A DNA stretch of 64,000 nt, taken from Candidatus Heimdallarchaeum aukensis (GTDB lineage: Archaea; Asgardarchaeota; Heimdallarchaeia; Heimdallarchaeales; Heimdallarchaeaceae). A program made the position numbers and the translations under genes. The first letter of the stretch is position 1. Each line of letters opens with the position of its first letter. The notes below the pieces were generated by a model. That model made no database searches. It was not told the DNA's origin and was given only the letters and a program-made list of their open reading frames with translations. The DNA is taken from positions 1,120,001 through 1,184,000 of the forward strand of contig CP084166.1 of the NCBI GenBank assembly GCA_021513695.1. Direction: 5' to 3'. Positions 2 through 59,932 of the stretch are shown here, one piece after another.

Positions 2-559
2 AAACGTAGGGCAAAGTTACAGTCAATCTATGACAAGCAAGGATTAACCACCTGGGGAAGAAAAATGTTTCAACTCCAGTTAGAACGAATGTGTAAAATC
101 ACCAACTATTTCCATAAAGCAAGTAGAAAAATAGTAGACTATTGTTCAGAAAAAAACATTGATACGATAGTTATAGGTTACAACCCCCGATGGAAACAAG
201 AAGTGATTATGGGTAAAAAGAATAATCAAACCTTTGTTTTTATACCCTTCAAATCGCTAATTGACAAAATCACTTACAAAGCAGAAGAAAAAGGAATAAA
301 AGTTCTTCCTACCGAAGAGTCCTACACCTCTGTCTACAGTTTCTTGGATAATGAAGAGATAGCTTTCCACCTCCATTATGCTGGTAAAAGAATCCATCGT
401 GGACTATTTATCAGTACCAGAGGATTAAAAATTAATGCTGATATCAACTCTGCAGGTAATATCGGTCGCAAAGTATTCCCCACGTTATTCTCTGTTATGT
501 CTAACTACGGGATAGTCTGGGGTGCAGTGGTTCACCCCGTCCGTTGGAAAATAAGTTAG
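2..559 (+). CDS. tnpB: TnpB (IS605 OrfB-type RuvC-like endonuclease), C-terminal ~185 aa, 5'-partial at window edge
   Basis: The frame of tracked ORF 65-559 stays open back to nt 2 (KRRAKLQSIYDKQGL...). About 92% aa identity by eye to ORF 9850-10728. RuvC-type motifs TEESYTS and INADINSAGNI are present. Confidence 0.85.
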   Translation, partial: KRRAKLQSIYDKQGLTTWGRKMFQLQLERMCKITNYFHKASRKIVDYCSEKNIDTIVIGYNPRWKQEVIMGKKNNQTFVFIPFKSLIDKITYKAEEKGIKVLPTEESYTSVYSFLDNEEIAFHLHYAGKRIHRGLFISTRGLKINADINSAGNIGRKVFPTLFSVMSNYGIVWGAVVHPVRWKIS

Positions 560-9468: not shown

Positions 9469-10728
9469 ATGAATGAGAAAATGAGGAAAAAGGTGTGGCG
9501 AACTGAGGAAATATGGGGGAAAGAATCGATCACTCTAAAGCAGTTGGCACACCAGGTAAAAAACTTGTATAATCAAGCAAATTACATTATTAAGTATCAG
9601 TTAAGAAAAAGTAAATATTTCACGAGAGAGTTCGAACTGATGAATATTTTAAGGTATCACCCGACCTACACAGCACTACCTGGTCATACGGCACAACAGA
9701 CGATAAAGTTTCTATGTTTAGCGTGGAAAGGGTATTTTAGGTCTTTAGAAGAATGCAAAAAAGAACCAGAAAAGTTTAATGGTAAACCCCGTCCTCCAAA
9801 ATAGAAGAAGAAAGATGGACTTGCTATAATCTATTTTACTAACTCTCAAGTGAAAATTAAAGAAGAAAAAGAGCAAGAAAAAGAAAAATTTTTTATCTCT
9901 TTCCCTAAACGTGTAGGACTAAAGATAGTTACAAGACTGTGTCCTTCAACGAAAGTGAAGTTTGCCCGTCTTATACCTATGGGAACGAAATTTAAATTAG
10001 AGATAGTTTACGAGAAAGAGATAGAAGAACGAAAAAAACGACATGCAGAAAGAGTTCTAGCTCTTGATCTGGGAGTGAATAACCTTGTAGGCGGGTTAAC
10101 CACTATTCCTGGTGAAAAAGGTTTTCTGATAAATGGTAGACCCATTAAAGCTGTTAATCAGTGGTTTAATAAACGTAGGGCAAAATTACAGTCAATCTAT
10201 GACAAGCAAGGATTAAACACCTGGGGAAGAAAAATGCTTACTCTCCAGTTAGAACGAATGTGTAAAATAGCTGACTATTTCCATAAAGCAAGTAGGAAGA
10301 TAATAGACTACTGTTTAGAAAAAAACATTGATACGATAGTTATAGGTTACAACCCCAGATGGAAACAGAAAGTGAATATGGGAAAGAAAAATAACCAAAC
10401 CTTTGTTTTTATCCCCTTTAAATCCCTCATTGATAAAATCACTTACAAAGCAGAAGAAAAAGGGATAAAAGTTATTCCTACCGAAGAGTCCTACACCTCT
10501 GTCTGCAGTTTCTTAGATAATGAAGAGATAGCTTTTCACCCCCATTATGCTGGCAAAAGAACTCACCGTGGACTGTTCATCAGTACCAGAGGATTAAAAA
10601 TTAATGCTGATATCAACTCTGCAGGTAATATCGGTCGCAAAGTATTCCCCACGTTATTCTCTGTTATGTTTAACTACGGGATAGTCTGGGCTGCAGTGGT
10701 TCACCCCGTCCGTTGGAAAATAAGTTAG
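9469..10728 (+). pseudogene. tnpB: tnpB interrupted by one in-frame TAG (9802-9804); tracked as two ORFs, 9469-9804 and 9850-10728
   Basis: Both tracked ORFs are in the same frame (start coordinates both = 1 mod 3). The sequence reads ...GKPRPPK*KKKDGLAIIYFTNSQVKIK... with no other stop. RuvC motifs are intact (ALDLGVNNL, TEESYTS, NADINSAGNI). The read-through length of ~419 aa is typical for TnpB. Confidence 0.8.
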
Positions 10729-12396: not shown

Positions 12397-14352
12397 CTAC
12401 TTTTTATTTTCTAACTTTTTTGACCAAGTATCTTTTAATGTAATTATTCTGTTGAAAACTAAATTGTCTTTTGTCGTATCATTATCAATAATGAAATAGC
12501 CCAGTCTTTCGAATTGATATCTTGACCCGATTTCTGCTTTTGCGAGGAATGATTCAACAAAACCCTTGACGATTCTTAATGAATCAGGGTTTATGTAATC
12601 AGTGAAATCTTTTCCTTCCTCTACATCTAAAGGATTTTCTTTCATGAATAATCTATCATATAACCTTATTTCAGCTGGAATAGCATTCTTCTCAGATATC
12701 CAATGGATACTTACTTTTACTTCTGGGTCGTCTTTAGTAGAATTTGATTTTGAATCTGGGTCATAAGAACAGTGTAACTCTTTGATTTTGCCTGTTTTTT
12801 CATCTTTTATTACTTTCTCACATTTTATTGTATAGCTGTATTTTAACTTAACTTTTCGTCCAGGTGCGAGTCTGTAGAAATCTTCAGGAGGTTCTTCTTC
12901 AAAGTCGCTATTATCGATATAGATTACTTTACTGAAAGTTATCGTTCTTTTACCCATTTCTTTGTTTCGAGTATGGTTATCAACTTCGATTTTTTCTTCT
13001 TTATCTTCTGGATAATTAGTTATTATAACTTTTAAGGGTTCAATTACACTCATAACTCTTGGACATCGTTCTTCTAGATCTTCTCTTATGTAATGTTCTA
13101 AAATTGATAAATCAACTATTCTTTCTCTTTTGGATACACCTATACCATCGGTGAACTTCTTTATTGCTTCAGGAGTAACTCCTCGTCTTCTGAAGGCAGC
13201 TATCGTAGGCATACGGGGGTCATCCCAACCATCAACATATCCTTCATTTACTAAGCGTAGCAATTTTCTTTTACTCATCACAGTATAAGAAAGATTTAAT
13301 CTGGCAAACTCTATTTGCTGTGGATGAAAGATTGGATTACCTTCTTCATCTTCTAATTGATCAAGAAACCAATCGTACAATTCTCTATGTACCTCAAATT
13401 CCAAGGTACAAATAGAATGAGTTATTCCTTCAATAGAGTCTTCTAAACCATGAGCCCAATCATATAATGGATATATACACCATTTATCCCCAGTGTTATG
13501 GTGAGTTTTATGTAATATTCTGTAAATTATAGGATCCCTCATTAAGAGGTTAGGGTGTGACATATCAATTTTAGCTCGTAAGACTTTTTCTCCATCAGCG
13601 AACTCTCCGTTCTTCATTCTTTCAAATAAATCGAGATTTTCTTCTATGCTTCTATTTCTATATGGGCTCTCTTTTCCTGGTTCTGTTACTGTCCCTCTTA
13701 ATTTCCTTATTTCCTCAACACTCAAATCGTCAACATACGCTTTCCCTTTTTTAATTAGTTGAACTGCATACCCATATAATTGGTCAAAATAATCAGAAGC
13801 AAAGAAGAGTCTATCTTCCCAATCAGCTCCTAGCCATTTAACATCCTCAATAATTGATTTCACGTATTCTTCCTCTTCAGTAATAGGATTAGTGTCATCA
13901 AACCTGAGGTTGAATTTACCATTATACTCTTTTGCTATCCCATAATTGAGGTTAACAGAAACAGCATGTCCAATATGTAGGTACCCATTTGGTTCTGGAG
14001 GAAAACGAGTATGAACTCTTCCATTATATTTACCCGTTTTCATATCTTCGTTTATTATTTTACGGATGAAATCAACTTCTTTTGTCTCTTTTACTTCTTC
14101 TTTTTCTTCCGAAAGTAGCTCAGGGTATTTGCGTTGAATAAGTTGCTTAGTTTCATCTAGAGGTTGTGCATTGAGTTTTTCTATCATTTTATGTGCAATT
14201 TCCTTCAATTCTTTTGCACGACCTCGAAACTCTGGATGGTTTGACATTAATTTACCCATCACAGCGCTAAGTTTCGCGTTGCCAAATTCTAGAATATTCT
14301 CTAGTACATATTTTTCAATGATGTCTTCTTCGGAATTCATTGTGACATACAT
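12397..14352 (-). CDS. glnS: Glutamine--tRNA ligase (GlnRS) with a ~95-aa N-terminal appended helical domain
   Basis: Long collinear similarity to E. coli GlnRS as I remember it: [36 protein letters not shown] (HIGH), [48 protein letters not shown] (KMSKS), [10 protein letters not shown]. Confidence 0.85.
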
Positions 14353-15765: not shown

Positions 15766-16425
15766 TTAAACTATCTTTACCCATCTGGGTTCATACTCAT
15801 ATTTTGCAAATTTCACTCTTATTAGCTGAGTTGGACCTTTTTCTAGGTCATCTTCTCTTCTTGTTTCAACCATCATATCGGCAATACTATGAAGAGAACG
15901 CTCTATTTGCTCATCCATTACGCCTTTGTCCAATACTAGTAAAGCACATTGGTTTCTAAGTCTAATTCTAGCTGCAACAGTTTGGATAAAATTAATCACT
16001 TGCATGGGATCATTATAGAGCATTAATAGAGAAAATTGATCAAAAACTATTCTTAACTTATCACTCTGTTGAGAACGCTCGTTAATACTTACAGAAATTG
16101 ACAACAGATCATTTGCTTTCTCAACAATTATGGTATTAGGCGTTTTCTCTTTGGGTAGGGCCCTAAATGAAAAAACATCAATAAAATTTAATCTTCCTTT
16201 CTCTATATGTTCGTCTATGTTATCTATACGCTTTTTTAGAATATTGAGTGTATCAAGAGCAGAGTTAGCATATAATACTAAAAGAACAGAATCACCATTA
16301 TTCAATCCATCTTCTATGAATCTGTACATCATTTCTCTTTTAGACGTACCAGATTCTCCTGTCATTAAAATGAGTGAGGAATCTATGGATCGTGTTAAGA
16401 TATCTATTCTTGTTTTAACTGACAT
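15766..16425 (-). CDS. KaiC/RecA-superfamily ATPase-like protein with a degenerate P-loop
   Basis: Single-domain KaiC-like layout (..SLILMTGESGTSKREMMYRFIEDGLNNGDSVLLVLY.., later ..ALLVLD..). Walker A reads GESGTSKR instead of GxxxxGK[ST]. Confidence 0.6.
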   Translation of the reverse strand: MSVKTRIDILTRSIDSSLILMTGESGTSKREMMYRFIEDGLNNGDSVLLVLYANSALDTLNILKKRIDNIDEHIEKGRLNFIDVFSFRALPKEKTPNTIIVEKANDLLSISVSINERSQQSDKLRIVFDQFSLLMLYNDPMQVINFIQTVAARIRLRNQCALLVLDKGVMDEQIERSLHSIADMMVETRREDDLEKGPTQLIRVKFAKYEYEPRWVKIV

Positions 16426-23539: not shown

Positions 23540-24781
23540 GTGGAAGACATTAAGAAAGCATTTGAGATAGCAAATAAAACAAAAATACCTCTTATCCCTC
23601 GCGCAGGAGCTACTTCAGGACATGGAGGAACACTAGTTTATAAAAAAGGAATAATAGTCGATCTAACAAAACTTAACAGGATAATAGATATAGAGTTGAT
23701 GGATCAATCAGTAACAGTAGAACCAGCAGTAACTTTCCACGACCTAGAAAAAGCTCTAACAATGCAAAGTTTAGCTCTTTGCTCCTATCCATCAAGTATC
23801 TACTCAGGAACAATAGGAGGGTGGATAGCACAAGGAGGAGAAGGTATAGGGAGTTTGAAATATGGAAGCATTATAGACCTATTACTGGGTTTAGAAGTAG
23901 TTTTACCCAATGGAAGTGTAAAATACTACACTGAGAAAGAAGATTTTGAAATGTTTGTAGGAGCACAAGGAACAACGGGAATAATAACAAAAATAAAAAT
24001 GAAGTTTAGATTTGATATACCTCTAAAACATATAGCTTTTACATTTGATAACTTCACAGACATGCTAAAAGGGTTATCAAGATGTAGAGAAGTAGAACCA
24101 TTTTCAGTTTGGTTCCTAAATAAACATAAAGTAGATTACCTAAATAAAACACTAGGATATATCTTACCTTCACGTCATCTAGTAATTGTTTCAAAAGAGA
24201 TAAGCTATGATGAAGAAGAAAAAGAGTTCAGAGAAAAAATATACAAGATAGTAAGAGAAGAAAAAGGACAGCTAATTTCAGATTATTATATTCAAGGAAT
24301 TTGGAAAGCAAGATTCAAAATCTTTTCAATATTAAAAGAAATGGACAACTATATTTTGGGAGAAGTAAGCATACCCTTAGATTACGGAGCAGCGTATATA
24401 GAGAATCTACCAAAGAAAATAGATAGAAAAATATTGATAGAAGGAACAATGGTCTCTTTTTCCACTGTATCAATAATCTTGAATTTGGTGCTAAAAACAG
24501 ACCAATCAAAAATTAAACAATATAAAAAATTCTTGAAAGTCTATAAATGGATACTAAAAGCAATAAAAATAGGTGGATTCCCCTCAGCAACAGGGTTGTG
24601 GTTCGGAGGATATTACCACACTATTTATGGAAAAGAAAGAGAAGAGAAATTATTGAAATTTAAGAAAGAAGTAGATAAAAACAATATTTGCAATCCGGAT
24701 AAAGTATGGTCGCCTAAAGTAAAACAATTACCCTTAATCTCTTTGAAAACAGCGATAAAAATTATTGGTGGATTATTTTGA
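23540..24781 (+). CDS. FAD-linked oxidase (GlcD / D-lactate dehydrogenase-like); annotated start probably too far downstream
   Basis: IPLIPRAGATSGHGG is a FAD_binding_4-type motif. The same frame is open from 23357 and encodes conserved-looking N-terminal sequence (..LYTRDFAKVP..KPEAVILVETVEDIKKA..), but there is no ATG/GTG/TTG before 23540. Confidence 0.7.
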   Translation: MEDIKKAFEIANKTKIPLIPRAGATSGHGGTLVYKKGIIVDLTKLNRIIDIELMDQSVTVEPAVTFHDLEKALTMQSLALCSYPSSIYSGTIGGWIAQGGEGIGSLKYGSIIDLLLGLEVVLPNGSVKYYTEKEDFEMFVGAQGTTGIITKIKMKFRFDIPLKHIAFTFDNFTDMLKGLSRCREVEPFSVWFLNKHKVDYLNKTLGYILPSRHLVIVSKEISYDEEEKEFREKIYKIVREEKGQLISDYYIQGIWKARFKIFSILKEMDNYILGEVSIPLDYGAAYIENLPKKIDRKILIEGTMVSFSTVSIILNLVLKTDQSKIKQYKKFLKVYKWILKAIKIGGFPSATGLWFGGYYHTIYGKEREEKLLKFKKEVDKNNICNPDKVWSPKVKQLPLISLKTAIKIIGGLF

Positions 24782-25212
24782 AAATAAAGGAATACTTTTT
24801 TCCTGAAGATTTACTGTATGATATAAGTAAACCAGGACACATTTGGATAAGGAAAATAGAAGAAAATAAAATAGAGATAGGAATAGACGATTATGCAGCT
24901 AAACGTGCAGGAGAAATAGAGTTTATTAGAACAATGAAAGTTGGAAAACAAATTACAAAAGGGGGAACAATAGGAACATACGAAACAGGAAAATGGATAG
25001 GACAAATAAAAAGTCCAGTATCAGGAAAAATAGTAGAGAAAAATGAACTACTAAAAAAGCAACCAGAGTTGGTAAATAAAGCACCCTATAGTGCATGGAT
25101 AGTGAGAATAGAAGGAGCAAAAATAGAAGAAGAACTAAAAGAAAATGAGTTGATAGTAGAAGCAGGAGAAAAACTGAAAGAGCACATATTATTTAGAATC
25201 TCAAAAGAATAA
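24778..25212 (+). CDS. Glycine-cleavage H-protein-like (lipoyl-carrier-like) protein
   Basis: HIWIRKIEENKIEIGIDDYAAKRAGEIEFI...YETGKWIGQIKSPVSGKIVEKNELLKKQPELVN follows the GcvH pattern, including a Lys at the lipoylation position. The TTG start overlaps the upstream stop. Confidence 0.7.
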   Translation: MKIKEYFFPEDLLYDISKPGHIWIRKIEENKIEIGIDDYAAKRAGEIEFIRTMKVGKQITKGGTIGTYETGKWIGQIKSPVSGKIVEKNELLKKQPELVNKAPYSAWIVRIEGAKIEEELKENELIVEAGEKLKEHILFRISKE

Positions 25213-25245
25213 AGAAAAAAAAAGAAAATTCCTGGAAAAGAACAA

Positions 25246-26067
25246 TTAAAGTAAAATTCCTAAAAGGAAGAAAAGAATAATTATTAAACCAAGAACTAAA
25301 CAAACAAAAGCAAAACTGTATTTTTTAGCAACACGAAGAAGTAATTCAATGGTTAAGAAGCCAATTATAGCTGTAACCAAAATAGCTAAACTTATCTCCC
25401 ACCATTTGAAGAGAAGAACAGGTTCGTGAGTGATAAGTGACCAAGATAAGTTGAGTGTAAAACCTCCAAGAACAGCAGGAATGCTCATAATAAAACTGCC
25501 TTTAAGAGCTTCCTCTTTATCCACACCAAGAAAAAGCAACCCACCAACAGTGGTACCAGAACGACTGATACCAGGAATAATAGTAAAACCCTGCAATAAA
25601 CCAACAATAAGCATACGTTTCTTACTCAGTTCAGCGATAGTAACACCTTCTTTCTCAACCTTACGTGAAAAATAAAGAACAAAAGCTGTAACTAAAAGAG
25701 CAAGACCAATAATTAAGGTAATGTACTCGCCAAAAACAGGATTCTCACCTAAATAGGATAATAAAAGATAACAAGGAATACCAGTGATAGCTGTACCAAA
25801 AGTAGTAACTAAAATAAACCAACGCCATTGAACAACCTCAGGAGAACGAACGCGAAAATCAATAAAAAAGAAAAGCTCCTTGTAATATTTTAAAACAACA
25901 GCAATAAGAGTACCTAAATGAAGCCACAAAGAAAGAGAAATAGCTTCTTGAGAACCAATATGCAAAAAAGAAACAAGTAAAGTAACAGATTGACCTTCAG
26001 AACTGACAGGTAACCACTCCAATAAACCTTGAAGGACAGCAAAAAGAAGTAAAAACCAGAAGAGCAT
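25246..26067 (-). CDS. uppP: Undecaprenyl-diphosphate phosphatase (UppP/BacA family)
   Basis: Polytopic membrane protein with LEWLPVSSEGQ and PGISRSGTT signature segments. Confidence 0.85.
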   Translation of the reverse strand: MLFWFLLLFAVLQGLLEWLPVSSEGQSVTLLVSFLHIGSQEAISLSLWLHLGTLIAVVLKYYKELFFFIDFRVRSPEVVQWRWFILVTTFGTAITGIPCYLLLSYLGENPVFGEYITLIIGLALLVTAFVLYFSRKVEKEGVTIAELSKKRMLIVGLLQGFTIIPGISRSGTTVGGLLFLGVDKEEALKGSFIMSIPAVLGGFTLNLSWSLITHEPVLLFKWWEISLAILVTAIIGFLTIELLLRVAKKYSFAFVCLVLGLIIILFFLLGILL

Positions 26068-26208
26068 GAGGTAAAAAAAAGAGAGACAGATAAAAATATA
26101 TCTATTAAATAAGAAAAGATGAAAAAGGAAAATAGCAAAATATAATAAAAAAAAGTAATCATTTAGTACAAAAAAAGAAAAAGTCTAGAATGAAAAAAAA
26201 GGGAGGGG

Positions 26209-27114
26209 TTAAAAAACAAAGCTAGGCAGGAGAGAAATAATAAATAAAAGAGTAAATATCATGTGCAACTGTGCAGTGTGAACATCGATAATAGAAAAAA
26301 TCTTTTCATTTTCATTTTTAAGAGCAATGATGTTCTTTAACGCAAGTGGAAAAGTCAAAAAAGTCAAAAGAGACCAATAATCAACTATGTCCAACAACAA
26401 ATAAACAAAAACAAGAATAAAAGGTAAGACAACTAATAAAACATACTCAAAGAAAGCAAAGCGTTTACCAAATAAAATAGAGAGAGATTTCATACCAAAA
26501 CCAGCATCGATTTCAAGATCACGGTAGTTATTGCCCTGTAGAACAGCCAAAATAAGCAAAGCTTGAGGAAGAGATAAGAAGAGAGATAACCAAGAAAAGA
26601 AACCTGATTGAACAATAAAAGTACCAAGAGTTATGCCAATACCAAAAGTAAAAAATATAGCAAACTCACCAAGACCACGATATTTTAACTCAAAAGGAGC
26701 TAAACCATAGAAAAAAGCAAGAATAACACCTAACAAACCTAAATATAAAACCCAAAAAATCCTGGTAAGATAGAAAATATACAAACCAACAAAAATACCA
26801 ACTAAAAAAGAAAAAAATCCAACCCAAAAAACATGTTTTGGAATAAGTAAACCCCTAACAAGAATCCTACCTTGGGTGTGAATATTAGAAACATCAATGC
26901 CTTTCTTGAAATCAACATATTCGGAAACAAGATTAGCACCTAAATGTAAAAGAAAAATACCAATGAAAGTTAAAAAAGCAAGAAACCAATTAATGTAACT
27001 AATTTCGTACCAGGAAATAATAAGACCAAGTGTAACAGTAAATAAACTAAGAGTAAAAGAAAAAGGACGAGAAACAATAAACCATAATTTAAATCTGGAA
27101 AGAAAAGTTAACAT
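26209..27114 (-). CDS. UbiA-family prenyltransferase (MenA-like)
   Basis: About 8-9 TM segments. Asp-rich motifs in MenA-like context (SEYVDFKKGID; NNYRDLEIDAGFGMKSL). Confidence 0.7.
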   Translation of the reverse strand: MLTFLSRFKLWFIVSRPFSFTLSLFTVTLGLIISWYEISYINWFLAFLTFIGIFLLHLGANLVSEYVDFKKGIDVSNIHTQGRILVRGLLIPKHVFWVGFFSFLVGIFVGLYIFYLTRIFWVLYLGLLGVILAFFYGLAPFELKYRGLGEFAIFFTFGIGITLGTFIVQSGFFSWLSLFLSLPQALLILAVLQGNNYRDLEIDAGFGMKSLSILFGKRFAFFEYVLLVVLPFILVFVYLLLDIVDYWSLLTFLTFPLALKNIIALKNENEKIFSIIDVHTAQLHMIFTLLFIISLLPSFVF

Positions 27115-27496
27115 CTGAAATCACAACTAAAAAAAAACATTTGACCGATTAAAAAAAGATTGTTGTTAAAATAAAAAAAGGAAATGATATAGGAAGAAGA
27201 AGAGTAGAAAAGAAGGAAAATTAAAAGGAAATAATAAATAAATACAAAACAAACTGTGAAAAAAAAAGAGCAAAAAGGAAAACAAACCAATGAAACGATA
27301 GAAATACATAAGAATTTTAGCCCAGGAAGCTTCAGGAAAAATCTTTTCTACGCATTAAGAGATTAAAATCAATTTTAATCCTACCAAATCGATGAGAAAT
27401 AATAGGATATAAGAATTCTACAAAAATATAAGTAAAAAGGATAAGAATAGAAAAACCTAGACAAAGCAAATAGATTAAACTCTTAAGAAAACAGAT

Positions 27497-27571
27497 TGGT
27501 AGTCCCCAGGAGATTTGAACTCCTGCCCCCGGATCCAGAGTCCGGGATCCTTGCCACTAGACTAGGGGACT
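27497..27571 (-). tRNA. tRNA-Gln (anticodon CUG), CCA encoded
   Basis: Folded by hand. 7-bp acceptor stem (AGTCCCC/GGGGACT, A1-U72), anticodon stem CCGGA/TCCGG with loop CT-CTG-GA, T arm AGGAG-TTCAAAT-CTCCT, discriminator A plus CCA. Confidence 0.9.
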
Positions 27572-27606
27572 CTAAATTACAAGCGGTAACAAAGGATTGG
27601 AAAAGA

Positions 27607-27681
27607 TGGTAGTCCCCAGGAGATTCGAACTCCTGCCACCGGATTCAAAGTCCGGAATCCTTGCCGCTAGACTAGGGGACT
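27607..27681 (-). tRNA. tRNA-Gln (anticodon UUG), CCA encoded
   Basis: Same cloverleaf as the neighbouring gene, with anticodon loop CT-TTG-AA. 35-nt spacer between the two genes. Confidence 0.9.
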
Positions 27682-27868
27682 TTTTATCTTAACTATTAGT
27701 CTTCTGTCGATTCTTTTTTTTAATTGTGTTTTAAACTTTTCTTTATCTACTATGCTTTATAAACTATTAAATTTTTTTGATTTTTTTCGACTTTTTTCTT
27801 TTTTTCTTTCTCTCATTCTTTTTCCTTATCAAAAAATAAATAAGAGTAAACTTACATTTTATATTATT

Positions 27869-29266
27869 ATGCTTATAAAAACTGGTATTAATGAGCTTGA
27901 CCAGATGATTGATGGTGGTTTACGTACCCATTATTGTTATTCTATCAAGGGTTCTGCTGGTGCTGGTAAGACTGTTTTATCTATTTTTCTTGCTTGGGGT
28001 GCTCTCAATCAGGACATCCCTGTTGTTTTTATTAGTACTGAGATTGAACCTGATCGTATTATTCATTATTTTCACTCTTTTGGTCTTCCTGTTGAGGACT
28101 ACATTGACCGAGGGTTATTAGTCATTGATAAGATGTCTTTGAAGTCTTCTGGTGAGGAGATTATCCAGACTAACAGTTTTGATTTATCAGGTATTATTTT
28201 ACGTGTTACTAAGAAGATTGAGCGTATTCGAGCTAAGTTGGTTATTTTTGATTCTCTTTCTGCTTTTATTGCTGACTTTGAGTATAAAGACACTGCCCGT
28301 AGTAAGTATATTGATTTTATTAAGCGCATTACTAGTTTAGATACTTCTTTAATTATTACTATTGAGTGTGACCCTATTACTAGCAGTTCTCAGATTGACT
28401 ATTTAGTTGACGGTGTTATTGCTTTAAAGACCGAATTAATCAACAATCAGCTAATCAAGAAGATTTCTGTTCCTAAATTAAGAGAAGCCAAGCCTTTAGT
28501 TTATGAAAACCGTTATACTATTACTCAGAAAGGTTTTAGGATTTTCAAATCTGAGAGCGAGCCTTTGTTTACCGTTGATCGTTCTACTGGTATTAAGGTT
28601 TTGGACAATCTTTTAGGTGGAGGTATTGCTCGAGGTTCTGTTGTTTTAGTTGAGATCAATGGTGAGATTAATTATTTTCCTTTCTTCTTGACTCTTCTTT
28701 ACAATTATTTAACTCTAAACCATGGTGTTATCATTCATTCCAATGTTCAGATGAATGTTAATCGTATTTTGGAGGAGTTTGAGCGAGGTCAGTGTGACAT
28801 TTCTGACTACTTACGTGATGGTAATATTGTCTTTTTGGATAAGTACAATCGTTCTGTCACTGCTGTTGAAGCTAAAGAGATTCGTGATATGATTAACTTA
28901 GATGACATGTTAGCTATTACTGTTGAGATGATGCAGGCTTTTGGTTCTGACACTGAAGTTGTTGTTTTTGGTGATCTTACTGATGATGTTAACATTTTGA
29001 ATGAGCGTGATTTCTTAAAATTGTTTGCTCTTCAGTCTTACAACATTAAGGAGCATAATGCTATTTCCTTTTCTTTTATCAATTACAATGCTGTTGACAA
29101 AAAAATTCTCGCTCGTTTACGTACCACCTCTGATGTTATCATTCGTTTATCGCGTGAAAATTATTCTAACTACATTGAATGTTTGAAGAGCACTACTGGT
29201 GCTACATTTCTTGCTAAGAATATTGAATTTAAAAAAAGTTATCCTATGATTGAAATTGTTGAGTGA
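27869..29266 (+). CDS. Two-domain KaiC-like (RecA-superfamily) ATPase; second domain lacks a P-loop
   Basis: Domain 1: TGINELDQMIDGGLRTHYCYSIKGSAGAGKTVLS (Walker A) ... LVIFDS (Walker B). Domain 2: TGIKVLDNLLGGGIARGSVVLVEINGEINYFP, with no GK[ST]. Start moved to Met40 of tracked ORF 27752-29266, because the upstream part is T-rich low complexity. Confidence 0.75.
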   Translation: MLIKTGINELDQMIDGGLRTHYCYSIKGSAGAGKTVLSIFLAWGALNQDIPVVFISTEIEPDRIIHYFHSFGLPVEDYIDRGLLVIDKMSLKSSGEEIIQTNSFDLSGIILRVTKKIERIRAKLVIFDSLSAFIADFEYKDTARSKYIDFIKRITSLDTSLIITIECDPITSSSQIDYLVDGVIALKTELINNQLIKKISVPKLREAKPLVYENRYTITQKGFRIFKSESEPLFTVDRSTGIKVLDNLLGGGIARGSVVLVEINGEINYFPFFLTLLYNYLTLNHGVIIHSNVQMNVNRILEEFERGQCDISDYLRDGNIVFLDKYNRSVTAVEAKEIRDMINLDDMLAITVEMMQAFGSDTEVVVFGDLTDDVNILNERDFLKLFALQSYNIKEHNAISFSFINYNAVDKKILARLRTTSDVIIRLSRENYSNYIECLKSTTGATFLAKNIEFKKSYPMIEIVE

Positions 29267-31373
29267 GGAAGTATTATGCACAAGATTTTATACTTCAAGA
29301 GCAAAACTTGTAACTGGTGTCCTTTTGTCGAATCGATTTTAAAGAAGATTGTTTCTGAAAAATCTACTTTAGAGTTAGAAGTTATTGATATTGAAGAAAA
29401 TTATGAAATCGCTGAAAAGTATAATATTATCGCTGTTCCTACTATTATTCTTCCTAACTCTACTAAAATTGTTGGTGCTACCGATGAAACTTTTCTACGC
29501 CAGCAGTTATCATTTTTTTTGTGATTGGTGAGAACTGCTTTCTTTTTGTTCTTTTTTTTGGTAAATTGTTTTTTTCGTTCTTTAATTCTACTTTCATCTC
29601 TATAAGAAAACTCTTTAAATTCTTTTCTTTTTTGTAAATTAATGACTTGGTCCTTAAATGATTCAAAGCTTATCTATGGTGTTGATCAAAACGATCTTTA
29701 TTTTTTAGATATTAATGATCAAGGTGAACTTTTACTTAAGCTTAAGGATCAATCTATTTCTTTTAATGAAATCATCAATCTTGTTAAGTCTCAGTTTAAC
29801 TCTTCTTCTCTCTCTTCTGTTCCTTCATTTACTCTTCGCATTCCTCAATTAATAACTGAACAAATTTCCAAACTTAACACTTGTTTCCAGTCTGCTATTC
29901 ATCAATATCAATATTCTGGCAATTTTCAAGGCATCTATCCTATTAAAGTTAATTCTTTGAGTTATGTTCTTGAAACTATTAAAGCGAACAGTCCTTCCTA
30001 TGCTTTTGAAGCTGGAACTGTTAATGAATTAGATGTTTTGCTTTCTCTTCTTCGTGATGATAAAACTCGTATGATAATGTGTAACGGTGTTAAAGATTCA
30101 GACTATATAGATAAGATTAGAGGAGCTCTTAACGATGGTTATTCTATTGTTATTAGTTTGGAGTCATGCTCTGAGTCTACTACCATTCTTGATTTAATAG
30201 ACCATGATTTACTTAAACTTGCTTTGAGAATCAAACCCTATCCCACTGTTAAATCTCATTGGGGAAGTTCTTCTGGTCGCGATTCTAAATTTGGTTTATC
30301 TATTCATGAATTTAAGCGCATTATTAATTTGTTAGAAAAAAGAGGAGTAAAGGATAAAGTTATTGCTATTCACGCTCATCCTGGTTCTCAGATTATTGAT
30401 ATTGATGGTTTAAGGTTCTTTGTTCTGTATCTTTCAAACAGGTATTTAGAACTTAAGCGTCTTGGTTTCACCAACCTTAACAATATAGACTTTGGTGGAG
30501 GTATACCTATTAATTATGATAATAGGTTACCCTCTGACATTTTAGATAATTATGTTAAAACGCTTGTATTAACTCTAAAAGAGACTATCACCGATTCTGA
30601 CGTTCAACCTAATATTTGGATTGAAGCAGGAAGGTTTCTTACTGCTCCCTCTTCCTTAATTATTGTTGAAACTATTGCTCTTTACTCTATTTTCCCCTCT
30701 GAAGAGAGTTTAAATGACCATAAGGCTATGATTAGCTCAATGCTTGAAAAAATCACTCATCCTTCTTCGATACTTAATTTATTTTCTCATTGGACTGAAT
30801 TACAATCTCCTACAATCGACTCAAATGTTAACGAAATCTTGAAGACTGAAATTTTGATGAAACACTTAAAATTAGCTATCAGAGAAAAAATGATGAATTT
30901 TGATGATGAGCAAAAGTTCAACAGGATTTTTGATTTAGATTTGGATGAGATATTCTATGAGATTTATTCCCCTGAACATATCTTAATCGGTAATTTCAGT
31001 GTTTTCAATACTATTATTGATTGGTTACTTGTTGGTCAATATTTTCCTATTCTTCCTATAGACAATCTTGATCATCAACCTGTTTCTTTAGCTAGATTGG
31101 TGGATAAAACATGTGATTCTGATGGTGAGATATCTATTTACCATCCTGTCTTTAATGAAGAAAAGATTTTGTATACCAAGGATGGTTTTCCATTAACAGT
31201 CAAAGACAAGAAATTTAATCTCATGGGCTTTCCTATTGGTTGTTTGCCTACTAATTTCCCATATTATTTAGTTATTGCTTTAACAGGTGCCTACCAAGAT
31301 AACATTAAGATGCATCACAATCTAATTGAGCCATTAAGTAGTATTATTATCAAGCATGAGAATGGGCAGTGGA
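28374..31373. repeat. Tandem direct duplication, unit 1 (3,000 bp)
   Basis: Sequence lines 28381-29520 are identical to 31381-32520 at offset 3000. After two homopolymer indels the offset becomes 3002, and identity continues to 31373/34375. Confidence 0.9.
29276..29524 (+). CDS. Small thioredoxin/glutaredoxin-fold protein (CNWC active-site motif)
   Basis: 82 aa. KSKTCNWCPF (CxxC) and a cis-Pro context (IAVPTIIL) are typical of the thioredoxin fold. Confidence 0.75.
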   Translation: MHKILYFKSKTCNWCPFVESILKKIVSEKSTLELEVIDIEENYEIAEKYNIIAVPTIILPNSTKIVGATDETFLRQQLSFFL

Positions 31374-32266
31374 CTATTACTAGCAGTTCTCAGATTGACT
31401 ATTTAGTTGACGGTGTTATTGCTTTAAAGACCGAATTAATCAACAATCAGCTAATCAAGAAGATTTCTGTTCCTAAATTAAGAGAAGCCAAGCCTTTAGT
31501 TTATGAAAACCGTTATACTATTACTCAGAAAGGTTTTAGGATTTTCAAATCTGAGAGCGAGCCTTTGTTTACCGTTGATCGTTCTACTGGTATTAAGGTT
31601 TTGGACAATCTTTTAGGTGGAGGTATTGCTCGAGGTTCTGTTGTTTTAGTTGAGATCAATGGTGAGATTAATTATTTTCCTTTCTTCTTGACTCTTCTTT
31701 ACAATTATTTAACTCTAAACCATGGTGTTATCATTCATTCCAATGTTCAGATGAATGTTAATCGTATTTTGGAGGAGTTTGAGCGAGGTCAGTGTGACAT
31801 TTCTGACTACTTACGTGATGGTAATATTGTCTTTTTGGATAAGTACAATCGTTCTGTCACTGCTGTTGAAGCTAAAGAGATTCGTGATATGATTAACTTA
31901 GATGACATGTTAGCTATTACTGTTGAGATGATGCAGGCTTTTGGTTCTGACACTGAAGTTGTTGTTTTTGGTGATCTTACTGATGATGTTAACATTTTGA
32001 ATGAGCGTGATTTCTTAAAATTGTTTGCTCTTCAGTCTTACAACATTAAGGAGCATAATGCTATTTCCTTTTCTTTTATCAATTACAATGCTGTTGACAA
32101 AAAAATTCTCGCTCGTTTACGTACCACCTCTGATGTTATCATTCGTTTATCGCGTGAAAATTATTCTAACTACATTGAATGTTTGAAGAGCACTACTGGT
32201 GCTACATTTCTTGCTAAGAATATTGAATTTAAAAAAAGTTATCCTATGATTGAAATTGTTGAGTGA
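29642..32266 (+). CDS. Chimeric ORF created by the duplication junction: SpeA-like residues 1-577 fused in frame to the C-terminal ~297 aa of the KaiC-like protein
   Basis: aa 1-577 are identical to ORF 32644-34401. From TITSSSQIDYLVDG onward the sequence is identical to the C-terminus of ORF 27752-29266. The junction is at nt 31373/31374. Confidence 0.7.
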   Translation: MTWSLNDSKLIYGVDQNDLYFLDINDQGELLLKLKDQSISFNEIINLVKSQFNSSSLSSVPSFTLRIPQLITEQISKLNTCFQSAIHQYQYSGNFQGIYPIKVNSLSYVLETIKANSPSYAFEAGTVNELDVLLSLLRDDKTRMIMCNGVKDSDYIDKIRGALNDGYSIVISLESCSESTTILDLIDHDLLKLALRIKPYPTVKSHWGSSSGRDSKFGLSIHEFKRIINLLEKRGVKDKVIAIHAHPGSQIIDIDGLRFFVLYLSNRYLELKRLGFTNLNNIDFGGGIPINYDNRLPSDILDNYVKTLVLTLKETITDSDVQPNIWIEAGRFLTAPSSLIIVETIALYSIFPSEESLNDHKAMISSMLEKITHPSSILNLFSHWTELQSPTIDSNVNEILKTEILMKHLKLAIREKMMNFDDEQKFNRIFDLDLDEIFYEIYSPEHILIGNFSVFNTIIDWLLVGQYFPILPIDNLDHQPVSLARLVDKTCDSDGEISIYHPVFNEEKILYTKDGFPLTVKDKKFNLMGFPIGCLPTNFPYYLVIALTGAYQDNIKMHHNLIEPLSSIIIKHENGQWTITSSSQIDYLVDGVIALKTELINNQLIKKISVPKLREAKPLVYENRYTITQKGFRIFKSESEPLFTVDRSTGIKVLDNLLGGGIARGSVVLVEINGEINYFPFFLTLLYNYLTLNHGVIIHSNVQMNVNRILEEFERGQCDISDYLRDGNIVFLDKYNRSVTAVEAKEIRDMINLDDMLAITVEMMQAFGSDTEVVVFGDLTDDVNILNERDFLKLFALQSYNIKEHNAISFSFINYNAVDKKILARLRTTSDVIIRLSRENYSNYIECLKSTTGATFLAKNIEFKKSYPMIEIVE

Positions 32267-34375
32267 GGAAGTATTATGCACAAGATTTTATACTTCAAGA
32301 GCAAAACTTGTAACTGGTGTCCTTTTGTCGAATCGATTTTAAAGAAGATTGTTTCTGAAAAATCTACTTTAGAGTTAGAAGTTATTGATATTGAAGAAAA
32401 TTATGAAATCGCTGAAAAGTATAATATTATCGCTGTTCCTACTATTATTCTTCCTAACTCTACTAAAATTGTTGGTGCTACCGATGAAACTTTTCTACGC
32501 CAGCAGTTATCATTTTTTTTGTGATTGGTGAGAACTGCTTTCTTTTTTTTGTTCTTTTTTTGGTAAATTGTTTTTTTCGTTCTTTAATTCTACTTTCATC
32601 TCTATAAGAAAACTCTTTAAATTCTTTTCTTTTTTGTAAATTAATGACTTGGTCCTTAAATGATTCAAAGCTTATCTATGGTGTTGATCAAAACGATCTT
32701 TATTTTTTAGATATTAATGATCAAGGTGAACTTTTACTTAAGCTTAAGGATCAATCTATTTCTTTTAATGAAATCATCAATCTTGTTAAGTCTCAGTTTA
32801 ACTCTTCTTCTCTCTCTTCTGTTCCTTCATTTACTCTTCGCATTCCTCAATTAATAACTGAACAAATTTCCAAACTTAACACTTGTTTCCAGTCTGCTAT
32901 TCATCAATATCAATATTCTGGCAATTTTCAAGGCATCTATCCTATTAAAGTTAATTCTTTGAGTTATGTTCTTGAAACTATTAAAGCGAACAGTCCTTCC
33001 TATGCTTTTGAAGCTGGAACTGTTAATGAATTAGATGTTTTGCTTTCTCTTCTTCGTGATGATAAAACTCGTATGATAATGTGTAACGGTGTTAAAGATT
33101 CAGACTATATAGATAAGATTAGAGGAGCTCTTAACGATGGTTATTCTATTGTTATTAGTTTGGAGTCATGCTCTGAGTCTACTACCATTCTTGATTTAAT
33201 AGACCATGATTTACTTAAACTTGCTTTGAGAATCAAACCCTATCCCACTGTTAAATCTCATTGGGGAAGTTCTTCTGGTCGCGATTCTAAATTTGGTTTA
33301 TCTATTCATGAATTTAAGCGCATTATTAATTTGTTAGAAAAAAGAGGAGTAAAGGATAAAGTTATTGCTATTCACGCTCATCCTGGTTCTCAGATTATTG
33401 ATATTGATGGTTTAAGGTTCTTTGTTCTGTATCTTTCAAACAGGTATTTAGAACTTAAGCGTCTTGGTTTCACCAACCTTAACAATATAGACTTTGGTGG
33501 AGGTATACCTATTAATTATGATAATAGGTTACCCTCTGACATTTTAGATAATTATGTTAAAACGCTTGTATTAACTCTAAAAGAGACTATCACCGATTCT
33601 GACGTTCAACCTAATATTTGGATTGAAGCAGGAAGGTTTCTTACTGCTCCCTCTTCCTTAATTATTGTTGAAACTATTGCTCTTTACTCTATTTTCCCCT
33701 CTGAAGAGAGTTTAAATGACCATAAGGCTATGATTAGCTCAATGCTTGAAAAAATCACTCATCCTTCTTCGATACTTAATTTATTTTCTCATTGGACTGA
33801 ATTACAATCTCCTACAATCGACTCAAATGTTAACGAAATCTTGAAGACTGAAATTTTGATGAAACACTTAAAATTAGCTATCAGAGAAAAAATGATGAAT
33901 TTTGATGATGAGCAAAAGTTCAACAGGATTTTTGATTTAGATTTGGATGAGATATTCTATGAGATTTATTCCCCTGAACATATCTTAATCGGTAATTTCA
34001 GTGTTTTCAATACTATTATTGATTGGTTACTTGTTGGTCAATATTTTCCTATTCTTCCTATAGACAATCTTGATCATCAACCTGTTTCTTTAGCTAGATT
34101 GGTGGATAAAACATGTGATTCTGATGGTGAGATATCTATTTACCATCCTGTCTTTAATGAAGAAAAGATTTTGTATACCAAGGATGGTTTTCCATTAACA
34201 GTCAAAGACAAGAAATTTAATCTCATGGGCTTTCCTATTGGTTGTTTGCCTACTAATTTCCCATATTATTTAGTTATTGCTTTAACAGGTGCCTACCAAG
34301 ATAACATTAAGATGCATCACAATCTAATTGAGCCATTAAGTAGTATTATTATCAAGCATGAGAATGGGCAGTGGA
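31374..34375. repeat. Tandem direct duplication, unit 2 (3,002 bp)
   Basis: See unit 1. The only differences I found are T5->T8 and T8->T7 runs in the trx-speA spacer (~29547-29560 vs ~32547-32562). Confidence 0.9.
32276..32524 (+). CDS. Small thioredoxin-fold protein, duplicate copy
   Basis: Identical translation to 29276-29524. Confidence 0.75.
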   Translation: MHKILYFKSKTCNWCPFVESILKKIVSEKSTLELEVIDIEENYEIAEKYNIIAVPTIILPNSTKIVGATDETFLRQQLSFFL

Positions 34376-34401
34376 ATGTTTTATATTATAGAGATAAATA
34401 A
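32644..34401 (+). CDS. PLP-dependent arginine/ornithine decarboxylase, SpeA-like (fold-III Orn/DAP/Arg decarboxylase)
   Basis: GIYPIKVNS (PLP-Lys context as in SpeA YPIKVN), IHAHPGSQI, DFGGGIPINY, CDSDGE. The 585-aa length is close to biosynthetic arginine decarboxylases. Confidence 0.75.
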   Translation: MTWSLNDSKLIYGVDQNDLYFLDINDQGELLLKLKDQSISFNEIINLVKSQFNSSSLSSVPSFTLRIPQLITEQISKLNTCFQSAIHQYQYSGNFQGIYPIKVNSLSYVLETIKANSPSYAFEAGTVNELDVLLSLLRDDKTRMIMCNGVKDSDYIDKIRGALNDGYSIVISLESCSESTTILDLIDHDLLKLALRIKPYPTVKSHWGSSSGRDSKFGLSIHEFKRIINLLEKRGVKDKVIAIHAHPGSQIIDIDGLRFFVLYLSNRYLELKRLGFTNLNNIDFGGGIPINYDNRLPSDILDNYVKTLVLTLKETITDSDVQPNIWIEAGRFLTAPSSLIIVETIALYSIFPSEESLNDHKAMISSMLEKITHPSSILNLFSHWTELQSPTIDSNVNEILKTEILMKHLKLAIREKMMNFDDEQKFNRIFDLDLDEIFYEIYSPEHILIGNFSVFNTIIDWLLVGQYFPILPIDNLDHQPVSLARLVDKTCDSDGEISIYHPVFNEEKILYTKDGFPLTVKDKKFNLMGFPIGCLPTNFPYYLVIALTGAYQDNIKMHHNLIEPLSSIIIKHENGQWNVLYYRDK

Positions 34402-48328: not shown

Positions 48329-48934
48329 GCAACCCTTGCTTCAGCAGCAGTCTTATTTAATGAGTTTAAGATTACAACTAACATCATTGAATTTGAAACT
48401 TTAAGTGGTTCTTTACTTGTATCAAAGAAAGATAATGATTTTTATTTGGATTTCCCCATTTCTAGTTTGTTCAAAGATGAAGAGAATTATCAAGAACTCA
48501 TTTCTGCTTTAGGAATCGAAGAAGCATTAAACATCGAATATTGTGAAACTTTAGACTATCTTATAGTTGAAGTGGAAAACGATCAAATTGTAGAAGATCT
48601 AGCCCCTAATTTTCAAAGAATGTTAGACAGTCATTTACCTAAGAATGTTGGATTAGTAATTGTTACTTCTAAATCTACTTCTAACAAAGATTTTGACTTT
48701 GTTTCTCGTTGCTTTGCTCCTTGGTTTGCTATCAATGAAGACCCTGTAACTGGTTCTGCTCATACTATTTTGTATCCTTACTGGTCAAAAAGGCTAATGA
48801 AAAAAGAACTTATTGCTTACCAATGTTCTCCACGAGGAGGAATTCTTCATCTTCAACCTTCAACTTCTCCTGATAGACTTTATATAGTAGGAAAAGCAAC
48901 TGTTGTTTTACATGGTCATCTATTTCTTGATTAA
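48329..48934 (+). pseudogene. PhzF-family isomerase gene, 3' fragment (~201 codons)
   Basis: The frame of tracked ORF 48446-48934 is open back to 48329 (ATLASAAVLFNEFKITTNIIEFETLSGSLLVSKKDNDFYLDFP...). The C-terminal part has FVSRCFAPWFAINEDPVTGSAH, typical of PhzF. Confidence 0.85.
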
Positions 48935-49076: not shown

Positions 49077-49790
49077 TTGTATGAAGAAGAAAAGGAATTA
49101 GTAGAAGTTGATGTCAACGAAGAGGGTATTGAAGAGATATCTGTTGATGAACAAAAACAAGAAGCTGAATCTAAAGAAGAAGTGGAAGAAAAGAAAGAGT
49201 CACAAGATGAGGTTGACGAAATAGAAGAATTGCGAAAATCGCTCAAAGCACTTTTTTCAGATCCTGAAGCATTAATCGAACAATATGTTCAATTATACAA
49301 GGAGCTAAAAGAAACAAAGGAAAAGCGCGATGAATACCTTTACCTTGCTCAAAAAACTCAAGCTAATTTGGAAAACTATAGAAAACAAGTACTCAAAGAT
49401 CAACAATGGGCTAATTTCCACAATAAATCCAAAATCTTGGAGAAGTTTCTTTCCATCTACGATGACCTTGCCAGAACTCAAGCTGAATTCGATAAGAATC
49501 CAGATATCGAACATGTAAAAGAAGCTCTTCGAATGATTTTTGATAACTTCAAGGCTACTTTTGATAATTTAGAAGTTAAAGTGATCTCACCAAAAGAAGG
49601 TGAAAAATTCAATCCTCGTATTCATGAAGCTATTCATGTTTTAGAGTTAGAGGACAAAGAAAACAACTCTATTGTTGAGGTTGTAAGTTTAGGATTTATG
49701 TTACAAGACTTAGTTCTTCGTCCTGCTAAAGTAGTGATTTCAAAAGTAAAAAGCAAACAAAAAGAGGAAAATAAAGATCAAGGTGATTAG
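49077..49790 (+). CDS. grpE: Nucleotide exchange factor GrpE (TTG start, AAGGAG 10 nt upstream)
   Basis: Acidic N-terminus, long helix (..[18 protein letters not shown]..), C-terminal FNPRIHEAI...[14 protein letters not shown]. Followed by dnaK 2 nt later. Confidence 0.85.
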
Positions 49791-49792
49791 AA

Positions 49793-51703: not shown

Positions 51704-51768
51704 AACTCGGTAAAGGATAAATTTAATATTATTTCTTTTTCTTCTTTCTACCGTTAGGAAGTGACGCT

Positions 51769-58471: not shown

Positions 58472-58481
58472 GTGAAATAAG

Positions 58482-59921: not shown

Positions 59922-59932
59922 GAAGTGAAAAA

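Follow-up and report, generated by a model that had tools for sequence, protein, structure and literature searches.

The window analysed here, a 64-kb stretch of DNA from Candidatus Heimdallarchaeum aukensis (contig CP084166.1), encodes a glutaminyl-tRNA synthetase (GlnRS) that is chimeric. A bacterial-type core of ~560 residues is preceded by a module of ~85 residues (the N-module) that is homologous to the N-terminal domain of archaeal glutamyl-tRNA synthetase (GluRS). At least 58 Heimdallarchaeia/Asgard proteins carry the N-module together with a 6-residue insertion in the core. We consider it fairly likely that the gene reached Heimdallarchaeia by an old transfer from bacteria, that the core was fused to the GluRS-type module, and that the enzyme was retuned to the archaeal tRNA-Gln.

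Several reviews state that archaea are without GlnRS (PMC9499178, PMC1865053, PMC5388404), and as recently as 2022 it was held that all archaea use GatDE to make Gln-tRNA-Gln; the usual argument is that a GlnRS arriving by transfer could not establish itself because archaeal tRNA-Gln differs too much (PMC9499178). A preprint mentions GlnRS in passing, beside cox genes in Hodarchaeales and Kariarchaeaceae (bioRxiv 10.1101/2024.07.04.601786), and one paper asserts a eukaryote-to-archaea transfer of GlnRS with no analysis given. A search of the literature returned no description of the chimeric architecture, its conservation across the clade or its phylogenetic placement, and nothing on GatDE in Asgard genomes.

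Identity of the enzyme and its archaeal setting

The GlnRS coding sequence is the longest open reading frame (ORF) at positions 12397..14352 of the minus strand (stop codon 12397-12399) and specifies 651 aa. The true start is probably Met5 at 14340 rather than the codon at 14352, giving 647 aa, because the homologues begin at the Met5 position (MNS.E..). All six peptide strings quoted in the initial annotation were found in the 651-aa protein, at residues 11-60 (N-terminal), 114-130, 148-156 (NLRFDDTNP), 311-319 (THSICTLEF), 358-364 (VMSKRKL) and 375-384. The class Ic catalytic domain (Pfam PF00749 tRNA-synt_1c, E=1.8e-105) covers residues 113-413 (13114..14016, minus strand), and Pfam together with residue mapping places two beta-barrel anticodon-binding domains at residues 430-531 and 549-623 (12484..13065, minus strand). 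The Pfam scan gave no match on residues 1-112.

Family models identify the protein as a GlnRS. The whole protein scores 720.3 bits against the NCBIfam model TIGR00440 (glnS), for which the curated equivalog cutoff is 425.8. The gltX_arch model gives 400.6 bits, just under its own cutoff of 401.75, and this near-cutoff score arises only through the shared fold and the N-module. The score against NF011291, a model of a GlnRS/YqeY fusion, is over the cutoff, but only model positions 8-561 of 769 are aligned; the C-terminal YqeY domain that was sought with this model is missing, as positions 562-769 are unmatched and the protein ends with the core. Because NF011291 passes its cutoff on the core alone, proteins of the clade are named 'glutamine--tRNA ligase/YqeY domain fusion protein' in GenBank, which is misleading. 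The top PDB matches of the protein are GlnRSs at 650-673 bits, with archaeal GluRS at 221 bits. For the catalytic region the best PDB match is the GlnRS catalytic domain 4P2B (463 bits), which we take to be from Toxoplasma gondii, the search tool naming no organism.

The residues that define a GlnRS are in place. They were mapped onto E. coli GlnRS (sequence verified against 1O0B) in an alignment of the query, 21 Asgard clade members and GluRS rows. The HIGH (residues 126-129) and MSK (M359-S360-K361) motifs are both conserved across the clade. The glutamine pocket consists of R116, Y297, S313, C315, F319 and Q346, corresponding to E. coli R30, Y211, S227, C229, F233 and Q255, and these equivalents are kept in 21/21 clade members, whereas archaeal GluRS, aligned alongside, shows Arg at 229 and Ile/Val at 255 and is gapped where the GlnRS loops sit. 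The anticodon readers R432, R494 and Q613 (E. coli R341, R402 and Q517) are likewise kept in 21/21, and the unpairing hairpin, the G36-recognition loop and the protruding loop are all present and aligned with E. coli in 21/21. Archaeal non-discriminating GluRS (ND-GluRS) is without these three GlnRS-specific tRNA modules (Nureki et al. 2010, PMC2978374).

The window itself is archaeal. It encodes the tRNA-splicing endonuclease EndA, an archaeal PibD-type prepilin peptidase, NucS, DUF61 and KaiC-type ATPases, and its GC content is uniform at 29-37%. The nearest database proteins, 65-99% identical over their full length, carry the names Heimdallarchaeaceae, Heimdallarchaeota or Asgard group. Homologous GlnRS loci are flanked by actin and other Asgard-typical genes on contigs of up to 365 kb, one of them next to an actin-family gene. 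The TIGR00440 score, the glutamine-specific residues and the archaeal genes of the window thus bear out the initial annotation, which took this ORF for a genuine GlnRS of an archaeon, as far as its sequence and surroundings can tell. Family scans of the window proteins found no gatD, gatE or gltX within the 64 kb.

Two tRNA-Gln genes lie in tandem 13 kb from the GlnRS gene on the minus strand, with 36 nt between them: tRNA-Gln (CUG) at 27497..27571 and tRNA-Gln (UUG) at 27607..27681. The CUG gene has A1:U72, G2:C71, U3:A70, A73, G10 and an encoded CCA; the UUG gene has an identical acceptor stem and also encodes its CCA. The acceptor stem of both (A1:U72/G2:C71/U3:A70 with A73) is of the archaeal type, and both tRNAs are presumed substrates of the GlnRS. 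One residue of the core bears on this pairing, namely Val321 (codon at 13390..13392, minus strand), which is the equivalent of E. coli Asp235. In the E. coli complex Asp235 is the reader of G3:C70. The position is Val or Ile in 21/21 Asgard sequences versus Asp or Asn in bacteria, and since the host tRNA-Gln has U3:A70, the change (D235V) may be an adaptation to the archaeal tRNA.

The N-terminal module and its conservation

The N-module is a five-helix domain that spans residues 5-86 (14095..14340, minus strand). It is followed by a Glu/Lys-rich linker, residues 87-92 (14077..14094, minus strand), that leads to the first helix of the core; the linker was delimited by a drop in the predicted local distance difference test (pLDDT) and by the starts of bacterial GlnRS sequences, which lie just ahead of the (D/N)FIR helix. 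An AlphaFold2 model built on a 53-sequence alignment predicts the five-helix fold with confidence (mean pLDDT 85, at least 90 over residues 10-80), and the values fall to 52-58 past residue 80, in the linker.

Searches with this domain lead to archaeal GluRS. When the N-module alone was compared with the PDB, the sole significant match was Methanothermobacter thermautotrophicus GluRS (3AII, residues 4-89, E=1e-7). A search of 1.84 billion representative sequences gave 133 matches, nearly all at the extreme N-terminus (positions 1-95) of proteins of 540-610 aa or in short fragments; those of full length belong to archaeal GluRSs of Thermoprotei, Sulfolobales, Nezhaarchaeales, Heimdallarchaeota, Promethearchaeota and Nanoarchaeota. 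With a profile built from the GlnRS modules, GluRS N-termini are reached at E as low as 5e-23, a joint GlnRS/GluRS-module profile finds 3AII in the PDB at E=6.5e-25, and the GlnRS modules align with the GluRS modules in hhalign at P=3e-32. Sequence homology thus identifies the N-module as an archaeal GluRS N-terminal domain, placed at the extreme N-terminus and flexibly tethered before the Rossmann fold. In archaeal GluRS this domain was named the 'YQEY domain' by Nureki et al. 2010, and it is disordered in the 3AII crystal (PMC2978374). The initial annotation had held that the protein does not resemble archaeal ND-GluRS, which stands for the core (~32% identity) and fails for the N-module.

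The same annotation had seen in the N-terminus a helical domain of the YqeY/GatB-tail type. An appended helical domain is indeed present, and its likeness to YqeY is remote. None of the Pfam models GatB_Yqey (PF02637), YqeY (PF09424) and R1/R2 matched the query at E<=10 or matched recurrently in 53 N-modules, a HMMER profile of the N-module recovered no YqeY, GatB, GatE or R1/R2 chain from all PDB sequences, and a Foldseek search of the PDB gave nothing under E=4.8. With hhalign (YqeY seed sequence verified against 1NG6), module residues 4-47 align with YqeY 95-134 at P=0.005 over 40 columns, with a probability of only 7%. The aligned region is the C-terminal tail of YqeY with its MGKVMG...P.V.G.A motif. 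The score of 22.2 exceeds those of 60/60 column-shuffled decoys (mean 11.4, maximum 16.8), and GluRS modules on their own align with YqeY in the same register (P=0.001). Only this tail portion of ~45 residues is matched, not the full two-part YqeY domain of ~150 aa, and the module measures ~85 aa. The weak but consistent signal suggests that the N-module is a remote relative of the YqeY tail subdomain (with its GatE counterpart), and of that subdomain only.

A parallel with the N-terminal extension of eukaryotic GlnRS had also been drawn in the initial annotation, and this finds no support. No significant similarity was found between the N-module and the eukaryotic GlnRS N-domain (PF04558/PF04557; hhalign P=0.33, no R1/R2 match), while YqeY itself compared with the eukaryotic domain gives P=0.001. 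Because the N-module shows no direct similarity to the eukaryotic domain, the likeness in architecture is best seen as parallel recruitment rather than shared inheritance.

The distribution of the N-module was surveyed in the best 120 database matches of the GlnRS. Among these, the 6-residue insertion is common to P0001-P0058 and P0060, as is the N-module with few apparent exceptions, and the proteins from P0059 on (P0060 apart) are bacterial-type, of ~560 aa, with neither feature. The insertion is specific to the clade (EDEEGN in the query, after the DWFLDQL motif; 13336..13353, minus strand, by alignment); its site reads DELGVYHPQQIEF in bacteria, and it is absent from all bacterial and eukaryotic sequences compared and from 4P2B. 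The deposited models of several Heimdall GlnRSs (P0026, P0036, P0040, P0050, P0051, P0055-P0058, P0060) begin at internal codons and so drop the N-module. In both loci that were checked (L081 2800-3000; L082 2760-3000) an undamaged module precedes the called start immediately and in the same frame, and on the evidence of these two loci the apparent exceptions are annotation artefacts. Heimdall GlnRSs that truly lack the module were thereby ruled out in two cases, their starts having been mis-called. The N-module was found in 0/80 named bacterial GlnRS loci from many phyla; these loci come from a GTDB species-genome scan that returned at least 80, and the matches listed are all bacterial, at 57-64% identity.

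Within the clade the N-module keeps conserved motifs and has a mean identity of 54%, versus 70% for the core. Between GlnRS and GluRS modules the mean identity is 29% (range 23-36%), compared with 35% for GluRS modules of different phyla. The low GlnRS/GluRS value and the 54% kept within the clade indicate an old fusion and a module kept under constraint. The idea that the domain was swapped in recently from a resident GluRS was considered and rejected, as the modules of Heimdall and Promethearchaeota GluRS are 27-32% identical to those of GlnRS and the module of the GluRS beside an 'Odin' GlnRS (described below) is 33% identical. Separately, a free-standing ORF of 79 aa (P0126; L086 151-390) on a 1-kb metagenome contig shares 44% identity with the GlnRS N-modules. 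A stop codon closes it, no synthetase comes after it, and it may represent a module that stands alone, a pseudogene or an artefact of assembly; as a candidate fusion intermediate it is uninterpretable on a contig of this length without a downstream synthetase.

Phylogeny of the core and origin of the enzyme

The core is of the bacterial type and was never grouped with eukaryotes. Mean core identities, computed over 529 columns, are 0.61-0.65 between Asgard and bacteria, 0.69 among bacteria, 0.44 between Asgard and eukaryotes, 0.47 between bacteria and eukaryotes and 0.32 between Asgard and GluRS. E. coli is 0.59-0.61 identical to the other bacteria and is thus farther from them than the Asgard clade is. 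In neighbour-joining (NJ) trees on corrected distances with 200 bootstraps, Asgard monophyly and the grouping of Asgard with bacteria both received 100% and the grouping of Asgard with eukaryotes received 0%. Strict consensus site-pattern counts yielded zero informative columns, and quartet counts were used instead; by quartet parsimony, Asgard and bacteria are separated from eukaryotes and GluRS in 96% of quartets. The suggestion in the initial annotation that this enzyme bears on the origin of eukaryotic GlnRS finds no footing in these values, nor do they support the view that the eukaryotic enzyme came from Asgard archaea.

The position of the Asgard clade relative to bacteria was examined with a second set of trees, to which verified E. 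coli, P. aeruginosa (5BNZ) and the 4P2B catalytic fragment were added. Monophyly of bacteria alone then dropped to 1-3%, and Asgard grouped with the non-gamma bacteria, to the exclusion of gamma-proteobacteria, in 67-75% of replicates, a moderate support for nesting. The rooted NJ order is GluRS, opisthokonts, 4P2B, gamma-proteobacteria, Bacteroidales and then an unresolved bacterial backbone, within which the Asgard clade sits on a long stem. Quartet parsimony also favors nesting within bacteria moderately (66% vs 22%). The core is thus probably nested among bacteria, a placement that is provisional because the analyses are of distance and parsimony type and eukaryotic sampling is limited. 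The initial annotation had named branching inside a recent bacterial clade as the sign of a simple transfer; the core probably does fall among bacteria, but the transfer appears to be old and clade-wide rather than recent. The second sign it had named, an N-terminal segment devoid of YqeY/GatB similarity, was not seen. As a separate observation, 4P2B groups with the bacterial-type rather than the opisthokont GlnRS and lies between the two in the NJ tree. Eukaryotic GlnRS diversity exceeds that of the eukaryotes sampled here.

The alternative that survives best is that the architecture is ancestral. GlnRS would then have arisen in the Asgard/eukaryote stem when an archaeal GluRS that had the N-module was duplicated, and Heimdallarchaeia would have kept this form; the source of the bacterial GlnRS would be Asgard archaea, not eukaryotes, and bacteria would have lost the N-module afterward. 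We regard this as unlikely, although GlnRS is accepted as derived from the archaeal/eukaryotic-type GluRS, which bears the N-module (PMC2978374), and the GlnRS-GluRS identity of the modules (29%) is about that of the cores (32%), as co-divergence predicts. Several further points weigh against a bacterial transfer and are compatible with retention. In the first tree set, in which bacteria were picked by similarity to the query and gamma-proteobacteria were absent, the Asgard clade branches as the sister group of all the bacteria included (68%); the support for nesting falls to 42% under strong rate heterogeneity; and the nesting quartets are tied when GluRS is the outgroup. The donor of the N-module was not traced to any GluRS lineage compared, the GluRS modules of Heimdall, Promethearchaeota and 'Odin' being only 27-33% identical to the GlnRS modules and no closer than those of TACK archaea. 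The trees are NJ trees and not maximum-likelihood trees with site-heterogeneous models, the eukaryotes sampled are almost only vertebrates with three yeasts and the 4P2B fragment, and Deinococcus-Thermus GlnRS was left out.

Against an ancestral architecture stands the complete lack of an Asgard-eukaryote grouping. The addition of E. coli and P. aeruginosa puts the Asgard clade inside the bacterial radiation at the 67-75% given above, and opisthokonts and 4P2B fall between GluRS and the bacteria-Asgard group, which fits the classical eukaryote-to-bacteria route. The Asgard-bacteria identity lies inside the range seen among bacteria, as the values for E. coli illustrate. An independent bacterial-type GlnRS in another Asgard metagenome-assembled genome (MAG) also shows that the bacteria-to-Asgard direction occurs. 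This protein (P0101) is from a MAG labelled Odinarchaeota (GCA_048885365.1, L083 2467-6153), on a contig that is archaeal by its gene for ribosomal protein L40e. It is 76% identical to Dehalococcoidia-like bacterial GlnRS and nested among those, it has neither the 6-residue insertion nor the N-module, and every frame of the gap upstream of it is interrupted by stops. Its gene precedes that of the N-module-bearing archaeal GluRS of its own genome by 247 bp, in a glnS-gltX tandem. Judged by its sequence affinities, P0101 is an independent second GlnRS transfer from bacteria to Asgard archaea.

A plain horizontal transfer, with an N-terminal extension that is non-functional or incidental (a translated leader or an annotation artefact), is improbable. 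Pfam is blank on residues 1-112, the NCBI gene calls of several homologues omit the N-module, and the 'Odin' GlnRS presumably works without it. The module is nonetheless intact and in frame in every clade member examined, truncated calls included, and its level of identity and conserved motifs within the clade, its confidently predicted fold and a homologue conserved across archaeal GluRS all argue against an incidental origin.

It is more improbable still that the protein is a GluRS-like or relaxed paralogue that makes Glu-tRNA-Gln for GatDE, like bacterial GluRS2, and not a true GlnRS. The host tRNA-Gln keeps the archaeal A1:U72 and A73, features tied to GatDE recognition (PMC9499178), and the N-module is derived from ND-GluRS. 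The residues that discriminate glutamine from glutamate are, however, all of the GlnRS type (Cys229 not Arg, Gln255 not Ile/Val, Tyr211, Arg30), and the glnS score is far over its cutoff with gltX_arch falling just short. A mis-binned bacterial contig, with the archaeal context being an artefact of assembly or binning, is hardly credible: bacterial GlnRS matches the core at 64-66% identity and NCBI labels one homologue 'Bathyarchaeia', but archaeal genes and archaeal-type tRNA-Gln genes lie in the same 64-kb window, where GC is uniform at ~31-33%, the gene itself bears an archaeal GluRS module, and the homologous loci beside actin are on long contigs with Asgard-typical genes.

Under an old transfer from bacteria, the core (residues 93-651) was most likely taken up once by an ancestor of Heimdallarchaeia. 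The transfer would be old because the base composition is fully host-like and the clade members have diverged to 65-76% identity. The archaeal GluRS-type module would have been fused in frame to this core via the short flexible linker. The enzyme is predicted to glutaminylate both local tRNA-Gln directly by an E. coli-type mechanism in which HIGH and MSK would bind ATP and the equivalents of Arg30, Tyr211, Cys229 and Gln255 would hold glutamine. A beta-hairpin tipped with Val/Leu/Ile may open the weak A1:U72 pair, the equivalents of Arg341 and Gln517 would read U35, and the equivalent of Arg402 would read G36. After the transfer, the Asp that reads G3:C70 may have been replaced with Val/Ile to fit the U3:A70 of the host. 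The N-module may act from its tether as a helper that binds tRNA without specificity and so strengthens the hold on a foreign-style tRNA, as suggested by analogy to the YqeY appendix of Deinococcus GlnRS (PMC1865053), the N-domain of the eukaryotic (yeast) enzyme and bacterial PF01588.

Related architectures, neighbouring genes and significance

The enzyme can be compared with several known synthetases. Bacterial GlnRS (E. coli 1GTR/1O0B, P. aeruginosa 5BNZ) has a core that is collinear with that of Heimdall GlnRS at 53-66% identity and shares the glutamine-binding residues, HIGH/MSK, the unpairing hairpin, the G36 loop, the protruding loop and the two beta-barrels. Heimdall GlnRS differs in its extra ~85-aa N-module and linker, the 6-residue insertion and the Val/Ile in place of Asp235, and the host tRNA-Gln has A1:U72, U3:A70 and A73 where bacterial tRNA-Gln has U1:A72, G3:C70 and G73. 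Archaeal ND-GluRS (3AII) has the homologous helical N-domain of ~85 residues in the same position and likewise on a flexible tether (PMC2978374), whereas its core is ~32% identical, it lacks the three GlnRS loops, it has Arg229 and Ile/Val255, and it charges Glu.

The GlnRS-YqeY of Deinococcus radiodurans (2HZ7; NF011291) likewise joins a bacterial-type core to a tethered YqeY-related helper (PMC1865053). Its appendix is C-terminal, ~215 aa long and a clear Pfam GatB_Yqey domain, whereas Heimdall GlnRS carries a GluRS-type appendix of ~85 aa at its N-terminus, where Pfam gives no match. The N-domain of eukaryotic GlnRS (yeast 3TL4/4H3S, human 4YE6) is ~215-260 aa with two subdomains (Pfam R1/R2); the eukaryotic and Heimdall cores are 44% identical and were never grouped. 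Bacterial GlnRS with a C-terminal tRNA_bind domain also combines a core with a general tRNA-binding appendix, acquired independently, but this appendix is an OB-fold, is C-terminal and occurs in bacterial hosts. GlnRSs of ~700 aa with a C-terminal extension were seen in loci L001, L004, L007, L010 and L026 (Anaerolineales, Desulfobacteraceae, Thermodesulfobacteriota); the extension in L001 is PF01588 tRNA_bind (Trbp111/EMAP-like) by scan, and the other four C-termini are similar by eye.

Other features of the window were also recorded. Three TnpB/Cas12f-like ORFs (IS200/IS605-type accessory) are present at 65-559 (+), 9850-10728 (+) and 46716-48170 (-), one of which is ~1.7 kb from the lipid-kinase/GlnRS gene pair. 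The KaiC-type ATPase genes form a cluster at 27752-34401 (+) and 15766-16425 (-), beside which are two tandem paralogues that share an Orn/Arg-decarboxylase N-domain; in the first of them a KaiC-like segment is fused on. A GrpE-DnaK-DnaJ operon lies at 49077-52917 (+), preceded closely by a PhzF-like fragment at 48446-48934. At 24001-28000 and 58001-64000 the AT skew is strongly positive (0.22-0.33), and the sole match of the ORF at 58482-59921 is a sub-threshold apolipoprotein-like repeat.

The clade-wide GlnRS of Heimdallarchaeia is a direct counter-example to the textbook generalisation that GlnRS is missing from all archaea, and a GatDE-only route should not be presumed when translation is reconstructed for the archaeal relatives of eukaryotes. 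At a practical level, several deposited gene models lose the N-module, and the NCBI product name misleads. The sequences suggest how the tRNA barrier may have been crossed, with a host-derived GluRS N-domain placed on an imported core and Asp235 lost in keeping with the U3:A70 of the host tRNA. This would be the third independent GlnRS with a YqeY-related helper, after those of Deinococcus and eukaryotes, which points to a recurrent functional need. Heimdall GlnRS is a clean case in which to study the adaptation of an imported synthetase to foreign tRNA, and P0101, as the unmodified comparison state, would provide with it a before/after pair for experiments.

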